This document shows positions 120 to 13,674 of a stretch of 16,386 bases of DNA, piece by piece. Positions within the stretch are counted from its first letter, which is position 1. Each line of letters begins with the position of its first letter. The DNA comes from a virus (taxonomy: Duplodnaviria; Heunggongvirae; Uroviricota; Caudoviricetes). The translations under genes and the position numbers were made by a program. The notes beneath the pieces are model-generated. The model made no database searches. It was given only the letters and a program-made list of their open reading frames with translations, and was not told the DNA's origin. The DNA is taken from IMG/VR virus record IMGVR_UViG_2923323785_000006, positions 1 through 16,386 of that record, one strand, 5' to 3'.

Positions 120-701
120 TTAAACTTCAGGTATTACAGGCCACTCAATATCAGGTGCAGTTGATGTATCAACACGGTTCAGCAACACCCGATACTTTTT
201 CCAGGCTTCCAGCAATGAGGTTTCTTCCTCCGTTGCGATTTCCAGATCTACAGCATCCTGAAGTGGCGCAATATGCTCACTGGCTACCTGCATCAGGCTG
301 TTTTTTGTTTCTTCCGCCTCCCGGATCCGGAACAGTTTTTCTGCTTCTGCATCTTTCACCCAGGCTGTGCCGTTCCACTTCTGAAACTCCCCTTCCGGCG
401 ATAACCAGGTAACATTTTCCGGTAATGATCCGAGTTCAGAAATAAATAACGCGTCGCCGGAAGCCACGTCATAAACCGTTTTACCCCGATGATCTTCAAC
501 GAGATGCCACGATGACTCATCACTGTTGAAAACAGCCACGAAGCCAGCCGGAATATCTGGCGGTGCAATATAGGTACTGTTTGCTGGCAGACCTGTATGA
601 GGCGGAATATATGCGTCACCTTCACCAATAAATTCATTAGTTCCGGCCAGCAGATTATAAATTTTTATGGTCCGTGGTTGTTCACTCATTCTGAATGCCA
701 T
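120..701 (-). CDS. tfa: Tail fibre assembly protein (lambda Tfa-like, 193 aa)
   Basis: Translation [24 protein letters not shown]... is near-identical over its length to lambda Tfa as I recall it. ATG at 701..699 overlaps the stf stop (TAATG). Confidence 0.92.
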
Positions 702-2713
702 TATGCAAGCCTCACAATGTAGTTAAATGCGATGTTTTTGACGGTGTTTTCCGCGTTACCAGCAGCGTTAACGGTGATGGTGTGTCCATGTGAGCCAATC
801 GCAACAGAGTGCGTATGAGCACCAATACCGACAGTATGTGCGTGAGCACCTGCAGATGCGGCTGTGCCGCTGACACTATGAGTGTGCGCTCCTGCAGCAC
901 TTGTATTCACACTGGCCGTAGACACTACCTTATGTACTGACCCATTTTGTGACCACTGGCTGACTGCTGATGCGCCTGTGACACTATGAGTATGGTTTCC
1001 GGCACTTGCGGCTGTACCGCTCACACTGTGCGTATGCGCCCCGGTGTTATTCGTGGATTTAGTGCCGTAATCAAACGACGATGTGGTTTTCGTCCCCAAA
1101 TCCGTACTGGATGCGCTGGCGCTGTGGGTGTGCGATTTAATGCCGTCCTGTTCCTGAGACAATACGGCACGACCACTGGCAGGTTTGCCCTTAATCGTCC
1201 AGCCACGCATATCAGGGATCACGCCTGACGGATAAGCGGCTGCAAGTTTCGGGTATGCAGATTTGTCAAAAGTCTGCCCCTGCATCAGGGCATAACCAGA
1301 CGGAACGGTATCTGATGGCCACGGGATTGGTGCACCGACTGGGTAGCTTTCTGGTGGAAGATTTTTCGAGGTATAAACTTCTGCCCAGTCTTCCTCAAAA
1401 CCATAGCCATCTCTTGAGGAACGGTAGAACAGACCTCCATTTCTGTAATGTGCCTTCATCTGCAAGGTCCGGCAACTTCCGACTCCGGTATAGAAGTTAA
1501 CCAGAATATAGCTGTCGCCAGAGCGGGTGACATTGTAAGCGCCTGATTCGGCATTCCATGGAACGCCCCCATCCGCATCGGCATACGTATCCGTTGCCCT
1601 TCTGGCAAAAGCAGCCACATGCGCGGCGGTTAAAGTAATATCTTTGGAACCATCAAACTCAACACCAGAAACCAGTCTTGGCGTTTGCAGCTTTGTTGCT
1701 GTTAATGCATTACCGTTCAGACTTGCGGACAGTTTGGTTCCAATAACCAGTTCGCCGGTTGCGTTATCAATAGCAAACGGTCTTAATGTATTCCAGCCAC
1801 CATAAACATCACCTTGATTGGTAAGCAGCAGGTAAGTTTTAGCGCCATCATTACGCCATAATGCACCATACTCCCCACCTATCATTCGAATCTGATTACC
1901 ACCACGCGCTACAATTTCGTCTGTGGCAAAAAGTTTTTTGCACGACAAGTTATCGTTAACGATTAACGAATGAGACTCATAAAAACCACGCCCACTCTTA
2001 AAATCAAGGATAACGTCCGCCGCGATACATTCAGTCGCTGGATTTGTTGCCCCAAACTTATAGGTCGTATCATTAACAACGAGATCAGCACCAGGTGCGG
2101 ATATTGACAGGCCATCTTCGATAAACGCAAAAACAGGGAAAGCAGCGCCATCAACATAGAACACAGAGCGCAAATCATCGCCCTTATTACTCATCATTAT
2201 TGAGTGGATGGCTCGTTCATTGTTTTGATATTGCCAGAACATTCCATAAGCATAACGCCCCCTGTCAGTCCAGCCACCAGGCATAACAAATCCGTTAAAC
2301 TCGCAGTTATTCATCGGATCGCCTGCGGTTCGCGTTGCCGTGGTGATAATGACCCTTGATGCCAGTTCGCTTACTGAGCCAGCAGAACGCATAACAACAA
2401 CAGGGTAATATTTTCCAGATGTTGCACCTGCAGGAGCGTTAACCCGCACATAACGCATACCACGCTTATCAGCAAAGTCTGTTTTACTGACCGCGTTAAT
2501 GTTGTTCAGGAAGCGTCCCTTATCGGGTATATCAGCGCCGTTCTGGTCTTTCTGCAGACGTTTCTCAGCATTGTCATTGGCTGCTTTTACTGCCTTTGGC
2601 GTTGCCGCCAGCGTTTCAGACGTGCTGTTGGTCGCACTGCTGAGCTGTACTATCCCCTTTTTCGTCGTGCTCGCATCCTCAAGCGCCACGGCGGATGCAA
2701 TACCGGCGCGACG
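701..2713 (-). pseudogene. stf: 5'-truncated side tail fibre gene (C-terminal ~660 codons of a lambda Stf-like protein; ORF track begins at a GTG at 2689)
   Basis: Translation ...[34 protein letters not shown]... through the His-rich [15 protein letters not shown] repeats and C-terminal ...[29 protein letters not shown] matches the lambda Stf C-terminal part. Homology stops near 2700-2713 where the frame runs into a stop, so the N-terminal ~450 codons are missing. Confidence 0.88.
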
Positions 2714-2772
2714 ATGATGCGGGCCTGTGGAGTTCTGCCGATCTGACTTATGTCATTACCTATGAAATGTGA
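2701..2772 (+). pseudogene. 3' remnant of minor tail protein U gene (last ~23 codons)
   Basis: In-frame translation [23 protein letters not shown] matches the lambda gpU C-terminus as recalled; no upstream continuation. Confidence 0.6.
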
Positions 2773-2778
2773 GGACGA

Positions 2779-3238
2779 TATGCCTGTACCAAATCCAGCA
2801 ATACCGGTGAAAGGTGCCGGAACCACCCTGTGGGTTTATAACGGGAGCGGCGACTCTTATGCGAACCCGCTTTCAGACGTTGACTGGTCGCGTCTGGCTA
2901 AAGTTAAAGACCTGACGCCCGGCGAACTGACCGCTGAGTCCTATGACGACAGTTATCTCGATGATGAAGATGCGGACTGGACCGCGACCGGGCAGGGGCA
3001 GAAATCCGCCGGAGATACCAGCTTCACGCTGGCGTGGATGCCCGGAGAGCAGGGGCAGCAGGCGCTGCTGGCGTGGTTTAATGAAGGTGATACCCGTGCC
3101 TATAAAATCCGCTTCCCACCACAAGCACGCTGCCGCCACCTTTCAGGGCTGAACGCTGCCCCTTTTTACGACGCCTGCGTCGGGACAGGACAATCCGCGC
3201 GTTACCCAGCTTTATTACGGGCAAATCCCCCCGGTTAA
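2779..3238 (+). pseudogene. Major tail protein V, N-terminal fragment (~113 aa of V fused to 40 unrelated codons)
   Basis: [50 protein letters not shown]...AYKIRFP matches the lambda gpV N-terminus; identity ends near nt 3118, after which the ORF continues in unrelated sequence to a stop at 3238. GAGGA Shine-Dalgarno precedes the ATG at 2779. Confidence 0.85.
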
Positions 3239-3295
3239 CCTTGATTCTGGCCTGCGGATTTTTGACCGTGGCCCTTTTCAGCCTGGCCCTTTCCT

Positions 3296-3880
3296 TTACC
3301 AGTTTCCGGCGTACCTTTGTCTCACGGGCAACCTGTGACGCCGACTGCGATATCGCGGATGAAGCAACGCGGTTATCAGTTCATCCAGCGCGGCTGCTTT
3401 GTTCATGGCTTTGATGATATCCCGTTTCAGGAAATCAACATGTCGGTTTTCCAGTTCCGGAAAACGCCGCTGCACCGACAGGGGGATCCCGTCGAGAATA
3501 CTGGCAATTTCACCTGCGATCCGCGACAGCACGAAAGTACAGAATGCGGTTTCCACCACTTCAGCGGAGTCTCTGGCATTTTTCAGCTCCTGTGCGTCGG
3601 CCTGCGCACGCGTAAGTCGATGGCGTTCGTACTCAATAGTCCCTGGCTGGAGATCTGTCTCGCTGGCCTGCCGCAGTTCTTCAACTTCCCGGCGCAGCTT
3701 TTCGTTCTCAATTTCAGCATCCCTTTCGGCATACCATCTTATAACGGCGGCAGAGTCATAAAGCACCTCATTACCCTTGCCACCGCCTCGCAGAACGGGC
3801 ATTCCCTGTTCCTGCCAGTTCTGAATGGTACGGATACTCGCACCGAAAATGTCAGCCAGCTGCTTTTTGTTGACTTCCAT
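3296..3880 (-). CDS. nohD: Terminase small subunit Nu1 homologue with replaced C-terminus (194 aa)
   Basis: MEVNKKQLADIFGASIRTIQNWQEQGMPVLRGGGKGNEVLYDSAAV... is near-identical to lambda Nu1 up to ...AAALDELI (about residue 171), then diverges (ITALLHPRYRSRRHRLPVRQRYAGNW). No gpA large terminase gene follows. Confidence 0.9.
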   Translation of the reverse strand: MEVNKKQLADIFGASIRTIQNWQEQGMPVLRGGGKGNEVLYDSAAVIRWYAERDAEIENEKLRREVEELRQASETDLQPGTIEYERHRLTRAQADAQELKNARDSAEVVETAFCTFVLSRIAGEIASILDGIPLSVQRRFPELENRHVDFLKRDIIKAMNKAAALDELITALLHPRYRSRRHRLPVRQRYAGNW

Positions 3881-11406: not shown

Positions 11407-11796
11407 TCAGGCGGCTGCACCCGCCGTTTTCTCGTACTTACTGATAGTGATCTCGACCTTCCCTTCCGGGATAACCGGTCCCCACTCCACCAGCATTCTT
11501 TTCACCTGGCTGTCGTCTTCCCACACACCCGCGTGGGTCAGGGCGTCAAACAGCGCCTTGTTATAGTTGTCCAGATCGCGGATCCGGTTATCCGGAGGAA
11601 ACAACACGATCTCCACTGAAGCAGGTGCCGACGTTGGTTTCGGCAGACGACGTAACTGCTCAACTATTGCTGTGCACGCCGCACTCTGGAATTTTCGCCC
11701 CGCCGCGCTTATCAGGCTCTTACCAGCAAATGCCCCTTTGTTGGGGTGTCGCCAGTAGGTGTTCACGCTGGGTGGAAAAGGCAGAATCAGCTTCAT
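11407..11796 (-). CDS. rusA: RusA-family Holliday junction resolvase (129 aa)
   Basis: MKLILPFPPSVNTYWRH... and RDLDNYNKALFDALTHAGVWEDDSQV match RusA catalytic-region motifs. ATG at 11796 overlaps the stop of the upstream gene (ATGA); GAGGGGG Shine-Dalgarno. Confidence 0.85.
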   Translation of the reverse strand: MKLILPFPPSVNTYWRHPNKGAFAGKSLISAAGRKFQSAACTAIVEQLRRLPKPTSAPASVEIVLFPPDNRIRDLDNYNKALFDALTHAGVWEDDSQVKRMLVEWGPVIPEGKVEITISKYEKTAGAAA

Positions 11797-12119
11797 ACTT
11801 TCAGCCCCCTCTCATGTAACCAGTGGGCTGCACGCAGCCTGGCGTTTTCCTCACCAGCAAGCAGTGCGCGGATAATCCCGGCCACCTCGCTGTCGTCGTC
11901 CTTCACCGCGGTATGAAGCGTGATGCCCCGGGCCACGCCACGCTTTATCGTGATGACGCCTTTTTTCTCCAGTGCGCGAAGATGCTCCACCGCTGCATTC
12001 ACTGAACGGTATCCCAGCATGGTAGCCACCTCCTGATTGGTTGGCGGGAAGCCACGTTCTTTCTGGTAAGAAATCAGCATATCCAGCACCTGCTGCTGGC
12101 ATTGAGTTAACGTCGTCAT
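11793..12119 (-). CDS. LexA N-terminal DNA-binding-domain-only protein (about 108 aa; no S24 peptidase domain)
   Basis: MTTLTQCQQQVLDMLISYQKERGFPPTNQEVATMLGYRSVNAAVEHLRALEKKGVITIKRGVARGITL aligns position-by-position with the LexA winged-helix domain (recalled from memory); the protein ends about 40 aa later. ATG at 12119 overlaps the upstream stop (TAATG); GGGGG Shine-Dalgarno. Confidence 0.8.
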   Translation of the reverse strand: MTTLTQCQQQVLDMLISYQKERGFPPTNQEVATMLGYRSVNAAVEHLRALEKKGVITIKRGVARGITLHTAVKDDDSEVAGIIRALLAGEENARLRAAHWLHERGLKV

Positions 12120-12370
12120 TAAGCCCCCACGTAATTCCCTGACAGATACCACTCTTCACCCGATACAGCGCGCTTGCTGCTTTTCCGTAAACACCGCTCA
12201 CGACGCGCAAGAAAATTGTTTCGCTCTTGCTGGGAGTGGCTTTCACGGAATGCCGCCATCCACACCGTTGCAGCACGACGGTATAAGCCCCTGGACTCCA
12301 GTTCTTCCGCCTGGCGGGTCAGGCACAAAATCACCCGGGGATCGTTAGTGCCGACATAGAAATTGTGCAC
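12119..12370 (-). CDS. Small PerC/Pch-like putative transcriptional activator (83 aa, GTG start)
   Basis: Motif AEELESRGLYRRAATVWMAAF resembles the LE..G.WRRAA..W core I recall for the PerC family; family assignment is from memory and the start codon is GTG without a strong Shine-Dalgarno. Confidence 0.5.
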   Translation of the reverse strand: MHNFYVGTNDPRVILCLTRQAEELESRGLYRRAATVWMAAFRESHSQQERNNFLARRERCLRKSSKRAVSGEEWYLSGNYVGA

Positions 12371-12406
12371 AGGTCTGGATTCACGAACTGGTTGCGGTTC
12401 CGGCTC

Positions 12407-12607
12407 CTACGGTATCTCAGTCAGCCGCGGGAAATGTCTGCGTGTATCCCCTTCACAACGGTGAGCCACACGCCCACTCTGACGTAACTTGCTTGCTGAC
12501 TGCAGAACGCGCTGTCGTGAGTAACCTGCAAAAGCATCAGCAATGTCTCCGGAAGTACACCCCGGATGGGCTTCAATGAATTTCTGAACGTCATTCAAAA
12601 GACTCAT
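12407..12607 (-). CDS. Small hypothetical protein (66 aa), possible winged-helix DNA-binding fold; first gene of the minus-strand operon
   Basis: ATG at 12607 with GGGGGTGA Shine-Dalgarno 6 nt upstream; MSLLNDVQKFIEAHPGCTSGDIADAFAGYSRQRVLQSASKLRQSGRV... The ORF-track extension to 12730 is rejected (Arg/Gln-rich, no ribosome-binding site). Confidence 0.45.
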   Translation of the reverse strand: MSLLNDVQKFIEAHPGCTSGDIADAFAGYSRQRVLQSASKLRQSGRVAHRCEGDTRRHFPRLTEIP

Positions 12608-12849
12608 GATCACCCCCTGAATCCTGCCGGGATCTGGCTGTAGTCCACGTTGTCGTAACTGGCTTTGAAGTACGGGTCTTCGCGTTTTTCGGTGTACGTG
12701 CTGACTATTCTGCAGGAAGACTATGGACAATTACTGACTCTTGCCGGTGAACCTGACGGAAAACTACGCGCAGCAGGTCATTAATATCGTTCTTAATAAA
12801 CTGATTATTTATCTCATCACTGAATATCTTTATATAGTGAGGACTTATT
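12608..12849. promoter_or_regulatory. Divergent intergenic region between the minus-strand (nin/Q/late) and plus-strand (yfdQ...int) operons; presumed promoters, no repressor gene
   Basis: No ORF with repressor features on either strand; AGTGAGGA Shine-Dalgarno for the first plus-strand gene at 12836-12843; promoter hexamers not confidently assignable by eye. Confidence 0.4.
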
Positions 12850-13674
12850 ATGTCTCAGAACTTAGACGCAACCGCAATTAATCAAATCCATGCCCTTATT
12901 TCTGCTCAGGGTGTTAATGAAATTATCAGTAAGATTTGTGCCGATGCTGTGGCATTGCCTGAGAATTTCCGCATTCATGATCTGGAAAAATTTAATTTAA
13001 ATCGCTTCCGTTTCCGTGGTGCGCTTTCCACTGCCAGCATCGATGACTTTACCCGTTATTCTAAAGATCTTGCAGATGAAGGCACCCGCTGCTTTATCGA
13101 TGCCGATAATATGCAAGCCGTCAGTGTGCTTAACCTGGGTACTATTGATGAACCAGGTCACGCAGATAACACCGCCACTCTCAAACTGAAAAAGACAGCA
13201 CCGTTCTCTGCCCTGTTGTCTGTTAACGGCGAGCGTAACTCCCAGAAGTCACTGGCAGAATGGATTGAAGACTGGGCCGACTACCTTGTGGGCTTTGATG
13301 CTAATGGTGACGCCATTCAGGCAACCAAAGCGGCTGCGGCGATCCGTAAAATCACAATTGAAGCGAACCAGACCGCTGATTTTGAAGATAATGACTTCAG
13401 CGGCAAACGCTCCCTGATGGAGTCTGTCGAAGCGAAGACCAAAGACATTATGCCAGGGGCATTTGAATTTAAATGCGTTCCGTTTGAAGGTCTGAAAGAA
13501 CGTCCATTTAAATTACGCCTCAGCATTATCACTGGCGATCGTCCTGTACTGGTTCTGCGCATTATTCAGCTGGAAGCGGTGCAGGAAGAAATGGCTAACG
13601 AATTTCGTGATCTGCTTGTTGAGAAATTCAAAGACAGCAAAGTAGAAACCTTTATTGGTACTTTCACCGCCTGA
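12850..13674 (+). CDS. yfdQ: YfdQ-like protein (DUF2303-type, 274 aa)
   Basis: [21 protein letters not shown]...; length and sequence match my recollection of CPS-53 YfdQ; first gene of a four-gene cluster. Confidence 0.75.

Follow-up and report, generated by a model that had tools for sequence, protein, structure and literature searches.

A PerC-like open reading frame in a decayed Escherichia coli prophage is very probably the C-terminal remnant of an amber-interrupted yfdN

An amber codon interrupts yfdN upstream of the ORF

An open reading frame (ORF) of 83 codons, which begins with GTG at 12119..12370 on the minus strand of the window (the whole 16,386-base stretch of DNA analyzed here), is very probably the C-terminal remnant of yfdN, disrupted by a nonsense mutation within a decayed prophage. 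The locus is already known: it is an annotated pseudogene of a very common prophage gene, and no new small regulator. A preliminary description had proposed a stand-alone small activator at this position. That proposal fails, as the ORF is a fragment lying 3' of an amber codon in the two-domain gene yfdN, belongs to a RefSeq pseudogene, and opens with a GTG that lacks a ribosome-binding site. What survives of the proposed PerC-like gene is the ORF itself and its family; the GTG start, about which caution had rightly been voiced, is internal to a longer gene.

The ORF corresponds to codons 82-164 of yfdN, which encode the end of a linker, the three-helix PerC core and a conserved tail, W.L[AS]G.Y.G; the GTG at 12370 is the codon for Val82. 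Upstream, its frame is open except for a single TAG at codon 69 (12409..12407, minus strand). Over the whole interval 12119..12613 (minus strand), 492 of 495 nucleotides (99.4%) are identical, in collinear alignment, to the intact 164-aa yfdN of APEC O18 (WP_001573323.1). The three differences comprise a synonymous GCG>GCT change, a CAG>TAG change that converts Gln69 to amber (C>T at 12409 on the coding strand, identified by translation and alignment), and a CGC>CAC missense change directly after GTG 12370 (Arg83His; 12366..12366, minus strand). Because the in-frame upstream DNA is 99.4% identical to intact yfdN, with one nonsense change, the ORF is not a stand-alone gene. Nor does it carry the features of one, namely its own start and ribosome-binding site in a frame of ~60-105 aa, and the uninterrupted frame of a functional YfdN is broken at codon 69. 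RefSeq reaches the same gene model on the 100% identical record NZ_CM129890.1, where 12119..12613 is named 'yfdN, PerC family transcriptional regulator' and flagged as a pseudogene with an internal stop.

The native yfdN product is 164 aa long if read from GTG 12613, or 162 aa from the better-supported ATG 12607. Between this ATG and the amber codon lies a translatable N-terminal fragment of 66 aa (12410..12607, minus strand), assigned by AlphaFold, Foldseek and profile matches as a winged-helix DNA-binding domain. When 22 two-domain members are aligned, the amber codon maps to the point where the variable inter-domain linker begins. Programmed recoding at the TAG was considered and rejected: the other complete genomes with a variant of the surrounding 61-mer differ by at least one base, and the intact reference reads CAG.

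The ORF belongs to the PerC family

The preliminary description gave the coordinates and the motif AEELESRGLYRRAATVWMAAF of the 83-aa ORF correctly and named no strand; the strand is minus. Its family assignment is likewise upheld. An hmmscan search of the ORF against Pfam-A returned PerC (PF06069) at E=2.3e-10 and 41.0 bits, above the gathering cutoff of 22.6, with ORF residues 19-71 matching profile positions 5-57 of 90. BLASTP aligned the ORF with PerC of EPEC (pMAR2, 89 aa) at 30% identity across 57 residues (E=4e-7) and brought their motifs into line, AKYLEEKGFYRRAADRW against AEELESRGLYRRAATVW. The alignment that had been proposed as a check thus bears out the PerC half of the comparison; PchA/B/C, PchD and PchE are likened below by published descriptions. 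The PerC core motif A..LE..G.[YFW].RAA..W ... R[RE]R..C is present in the ORF; across 36 aligned sequences, L24, R32 and A33 never vary, and A21, A34, R57 and C60 are at least 90% conserved. On these sequence comparisons, the likeness to PerC is far beyond chance level.

The ANR family (e.g. Aar, NF033650) shows weak similarity over the same helical core. The NCBIfam profile NF033650 scored 25.9 bits (E=6.5e-6) against a curated cutoff of 32, so the ORF is not a member. This sub-threshold match covers the same helices as the PerC match, and a resemblance between PerC-family and ANR proteins was noted in a 2025 paper (PMC11773190).

YfdN-type PerC proteins have two domains

To place the ORF among its relatives, we ran phmmer exhaustively with the 83-aa sequence against 1.84 billion cluster representatives, which returned 59 relatives. 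Those that are close or mid-range and look intact are 138-161 aa long, their PerC core occupying residues ~60-160 (typically ~80-158). Stand-alone PerC-domain forms of 57-95 aa were found among the more distant matches only. The named short entries among the close database matches are all flagged 'partial', and in the homologous-protein searches nearly all entries were partial or broken, with no clean 164-aa representative found among them. A full-length gene of 162-174 aa is annotated in four phages, SfV (orf40), PhiR29_2, 1720a-02 and ST64B (sb43). Its syntenic position is the same in all four: O, the replication gene, lies on one side and the nin-region genes dam/LexA-like/rusA on the other. 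The window copy likewise sits in the early-right operon between O and LexA-like/rusA genes.

Alignment of the 22 two-domain members, at 25-77% identity, revealed conservation of the N-terminal module, the variable linker, the PerC core and the tail W.L[AS]G.Y.G, the N-terminal module being kept down to 25% identity. An intact orthologue matches phrog_1324 over residues 2-163 (E=5e-78). Two further PHROG families map to parts of the protein: phrog_2608 (83 positions, 'transcriptional activator') corresponds exactly to YfdN residues 82-164, and phrog_23071 matches the N-terminal part. Both appear to be built at least partly from split or truncated annotations of one two-domain gene.

The two fragments encoded in the window were modeled separately by AlphaFold. 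The 66-aa fragment is predicted to form a winged helix of H-b-H-H-b-b topology (mean pLDDT 84.6), which Foldseek matched to ArsR/SmtB, MarR/SlyA and BlaI domains (TM 0.65-0.83, prob 1.00); the N-terminal part of YfdN also gave weak MarR-like profile matches. In the 83-aa part, helices are predicted at residues 11-26, 30-43 and 47-69, with pLDDT of ~95 over residues 11-60. Foldseek returned only generic TPR/MIT-like helical matches for the PerC core (E>=0.5), and we drew no mechanism from them. This generic result agrees with the report that Pch proteins lack similarity to known DNA-binding proteins (PMC4764244). A sequence search of the PDB with intact YfdN gave no match at E<=10. Together, these data show that intact YfdN (~162-164 aa) carries its winged helix at the N-terminus and its PerC core, three helices in a TPR-like arrangement, at the C-terminus, with a variable linker in between.

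The gene lies in a mosaic, degraded prophage

The chromosome of E. coli MB06101 (NZ_CM129890.1), a seawater isolate from the Galapagos, matches the whole window at 100% identity. The window represents a mosaic, degraded DLP12/CPS-53-like lambdoid prophage at argU/intD, in keeping with the prophage location proposed in the preliminary description. The DLP12-type parts include the lysis genes, bor, quuD and the porin; the CPS-53-type early genes are yfdN, yfdQ, yfdR, a yfdS-like gene and yfdT. Upstream of yfdN, the prophage carries a deletion scar (12610..12784) at which a 96-bp C-terminal remnant of replication protein O (12610..12705, minus strand; the N-terminal part is deleted) abuts a yfdP remnant on the opposite strand (12701..12784, plus strand), followed by yfdQ, yfdR, the yfdS-like gene, yfdT and intD. 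The immunity region, with cI, cro, cII, pR and pL, is gone. A smaller deletion is seen there in strain EC50 (contig L008), and on contig L011 the region is intact.

Downstream, in the same operon, lies a gene for a 108-aa LexA-like protein (11793..12119, minus strand), whose ATG overlaps the yfdN stop codon (TAATG). The protein consists of the LexA DNA-binding domain alone (PF01726, E=3.7e-19), without the S24 peptidase domain, and its gene is conserved beside yfdN in SfV-like phages. In SfV, PhiR29_2 and 1720a-02, a dam gene (N6-adenine methyltransferase) separates yfdN from the LexA-like gene; it is absent at 12119. In ST64B, a PAPS-reductase/dam-like gene follows the yfdN homologue, and among public proteins, P0132 (382 aa) joins YfdN and Dam in a read-through fusion. 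Elsewhere in the window, a tail-fibre-assembly gene (120..701) contains a match to Rfam IS009 (RF02111) at 160..358 on the minus strand (229.5 bits; gathering cutoff 117). The structural genes at 701..3880 are truncated: what is left is a tail fibre that has lost its N-terminal part, together with pieces of gpU, the tail tube and a tail protein, adjoined by an intact small terminase gene. The truncation of these genes shows extensive decay of the late region of the prophage.

The amber haplotype is rare, inherited and older than the deletion

The exact 61-mer around the TAG occurs in one of 5426 complete E. coli genomes, that of MB06101. Other matches to this 61-mer fall in 261 records at 95-99% identity, and all 39 among the matches listed differ from it by a single base. 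Arg83His is likewise unique to this haplotype among complete genomes. Beyond complete genomes, the identical three-SNP haplotype recurs on at least 24 further contigs of the ENA and Logan assemblies, in prophages at three states of decay: one with the same deletion as the window (L010), one with full-length O upstream of yfdN (L012), and one that keeps a cI-like repressor, Cro, a CII-like gene and O, and bears a different deletion in kilA/DUF968 (L011). The recurrence of an identical three-SNP haplotype in three decay states indicates that the lesion is real and inherited, not an assembly error, and that the amber mutation is older than the deletion of the immunity region. As the haplotype copies compared are identical, their persistence is no evidence of selection.

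DNA of the yfdN PerC-domain type is by comparison very common, found in 2,581 of 5,426 complete E. coli genomes (~48%) and also in Shigella and Salmonella phages. Within the MB06101 chromosome, a second locus outside the window matches the yfdN PerC-domain DNA, making two places in that record.

The PerC core is probably not made from this copy

The likely true start of yfdN, ATG 12607, has an anti-Shine-Dalgarno pairing energy of -10.7 kcal/mol, and the starts of five neighboring genes range from about -6.4 to -11.1 kcal/mol. For the 20 nt before GTG 12370, the value is +0.3 kcal/mol, which means that a Shine-Dalgarno sequence is lacking there. A sigma-70 consensus scan of 12000-13000 on both strands found no promoter, this being a simple scan that may miss weak or non-sigma-70 promoters, and an Rfam scan gave no match at the yfdN locus. 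Public data include the truncated 66-aa product, in its exact form, from 29 contigs, whereas a collection of ~15 billion proteins has no exact copy of the 83-aa sequence with either M or V as its first residue. On three representative contigs, standing for 24, gene callers placed no gene in the 288 nt that separate the 66-aa gene from the LexA-like one.

Were the operon transcribed, ribosomes starting at ATG 12607 would make nothing beyond the winged-helix peptide of 66 aa. The PerC core, lying 3' of the stop and behind a GTG without a Shine-Dalgarno sequence, would most likely not be made, and in the window it also stands downstream of a deletion that took pR and the immunity region. The amber codon, the GTG and this deletion are together the reason to regard the PerC module as a product that is likely not made, and we infer that the 83-aa ORF is unexpressed. 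In all likelihood, this copy has therefore lost its function, providing at most a 66-aa winged-helix peptide while its PerC core stays silent.

Several observations count against this account and fit a restart of translation at GTG 12370, which would release, in addition to the 66-aa winged-helix peptide, a stand-alone PerC/Pch-like regulator of 83 aa acting against H-NS. Arg83His is the only damage to the PerC core, for which a confident fold is predicted even in isolation. In nature, members of the PerC family often occur as stand-alone proteins about as long as the ORF; examples are the distant forms of 57-95 aa and PerC (89 aa). Past the amber, no in-frame start codon precedes GTG 12370, which lies 36 nt downstream, and initiation after nonsense codons is established in E. 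coli: post-termination reinitiation is known, for example, from the lacI restart proteins, and Adhin and van Duin reportedly put forward a scanning model for it. The haplotype persists on at least 24 contigs, one of which (L011) carries a prophage that keeps cI, cro, cII and O; in a prophage of this type the yfdN operon could be transcribed on induction. A trace of the 83-aa product, made by reinitiation 36 nt past the stop, is thus possible in principle. Against a functional restart stand the pairing energy of +0.3 kcal/mol at this GTG, the deletion of pR and the lack of a promoter in the consensus scan, the two-domain architecture of all the close relatives that look intact, the silence of gene callers and of the protein collection, and the identity of the haplotype copies, so that their persistence does not point to selection. 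On balance, we consider such a restart, at a low level, the main rival account but quite unlikely. A natural fission at the exact domain boundary, into a free 66-aa winged helix and a restart-made 83-aa PerC module, is also quite unlikely; if true, it would be a snapshot of stand-alone PerC/Pch regulators arising from two-domain phage proteins of the YfdN type.

A further possibility is that the stop is ineffective, either as a sequencing error or through amber suppression or read-through, and that full-length YfdN is made. A single-base substitution is the only lesion, and UAG is the stop codon that is easiest to suppress. The independent assembly of the TAG haplotype on at least 24 ENA and Logan contigs rules out a one-off error, basal read-through of UAG is low, and to our knowledge amber suppressors are not expected in natural isolates; in the window, the operon has also lost its promoter region. 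We regard full-length YfdN from this allele as very unlikely. Extremely improbable is the model of the preliminary description, an independent small GTG-start gene for a PerC/Pch-like activator with non-LEE targets: although the ORF is real and matches PerC, phrog_2608 matches it end to end, some phage records annotate the short form and the host has no detectable LEE, the GTG has no Shine-Dalgarno sequence and is an internal Val82 codon of a longer gene, kept intact by functional phages and by the other alleles compared (one or a few bases off the window 61-mer; 261 records, 95-99%), the short forms named among close matches are all partial, and the locus is a pseudogene according to RefSeq.

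YfdN among PerC-family proteins

YfdN of the K-12 cryptic prophage CPS-53/KpLE1 (b2357, P76510) is the same gene under the same RefSeq name, termed 'the K12 unique PerC homologue' in earlier work (PMC5931665), and phage orthologues include SfV Orf40, ST64B Sb43, and the 'PerC family' proteins of mEp460, SfII and SfIV. Many copies in E. coli and in phages match the window yfdN DNA at 96-99.8% identity, and the gene order O, yfdN, (dam), LexA-like gene, rusA is shared. It differs from other yfdN copies in the change of Gln69 to amber, in Arg83His, in the absence of the dam gene that follows yfdN in phages, and in the deletion of the immunity region.

PerC, encoded on the EPEC plasmid pEAF/pMAR2 (89 aa), is the founding member of PF06069 and shares with YfdN the core A..LE..G.Y/F.RAA..W...R.R..C. 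In PerC, which is stand-alone and plasmid-encoded, the core is N-terminal, whereas in YfdN it follows a winged helix and is succeeded by the distinct tail W.L[AS]G.Y.G. PerC activates LEE1, an activity undocumented for YfdN. By published descriptions, the prophage-encoded PerC homologues PchA/B/C (group 1), PchD and PchE of EHEC O157:H7 are also comparable. At LEE1, PchA, which binds AT-rich DNA, reduces the occupancy by H-NS/StpA (PMC4764244). Expression of the group 1 pch genes is SOS- and prophage-induced (PMC6265319), in line with the place of yfdN in a phage early operon.

Intact YfdN is encoded in the early-right operon of temperate phages of the SfV/ST64B/mEp460 type. By analogy with PchA, it would most plausibly serve as a transcription modulator of the phage early operon that binds AT-rich, H-NS-silenced DNA. 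In such a scheme, the winged helix would bind DNA and the PerC module would act in a PchA-like manner, reducing H-NS/StpA occupancy. Existing data on yfdN itself include its deletion as a precaution in a ler::lacZ reporter strain (PMC5931665) and a change in glycogen accumulation on its over-expression in a screen (PMC2853380).

Family membership does not predict LEE activation

The preliminary description presumed that the host might be LEE-negative, and this premise is borne out for MB06101, in which no LEE is detectable by an escN probe. The chimeric query consisted of escN, taken from the Sakai LEE, and a stretch of the window for which MB06101 is the top-ranked match. The escN half matched LEE-positive strains and added no match in MB06101, which gave three places with escN and three without. 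Given that yfdN-type DNA is present in 2,581 of 5,426 E. coli genomes and in Shigella and Salmonella phages, the role of the PerC family is clearly independent of LEE. Only some PerC-family members activate ler (PMC6265319, PMC11773190). Group 1 Pch proteins do so, unlike PchD and PchE, the latter being a repressor of curli and adhesion (PMC6265319, PMC7369912); a PerC-family member encoded by a PICI represses LEE1 (PMC11773190). These heterogeneous functions imply that family membership is no predictor of LEE activation.

From the ORF list, the locus looked like a novel small regulator of the virulence type in a strain without LEE; it is instead an inactivated copy of a common prophage gene, already flagged as such by RefSeq. 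As phrog_2608 coincides with the truncated 83-aa form, database matches to 'small transcriptional activators' of ~83 aa should be checked for an in-frame N-terminal domain upstream. More broadly, PerC proteins of the YfdN type are consistently two-domain, which may explain why members of the PerC family behave differently in LEE assays.
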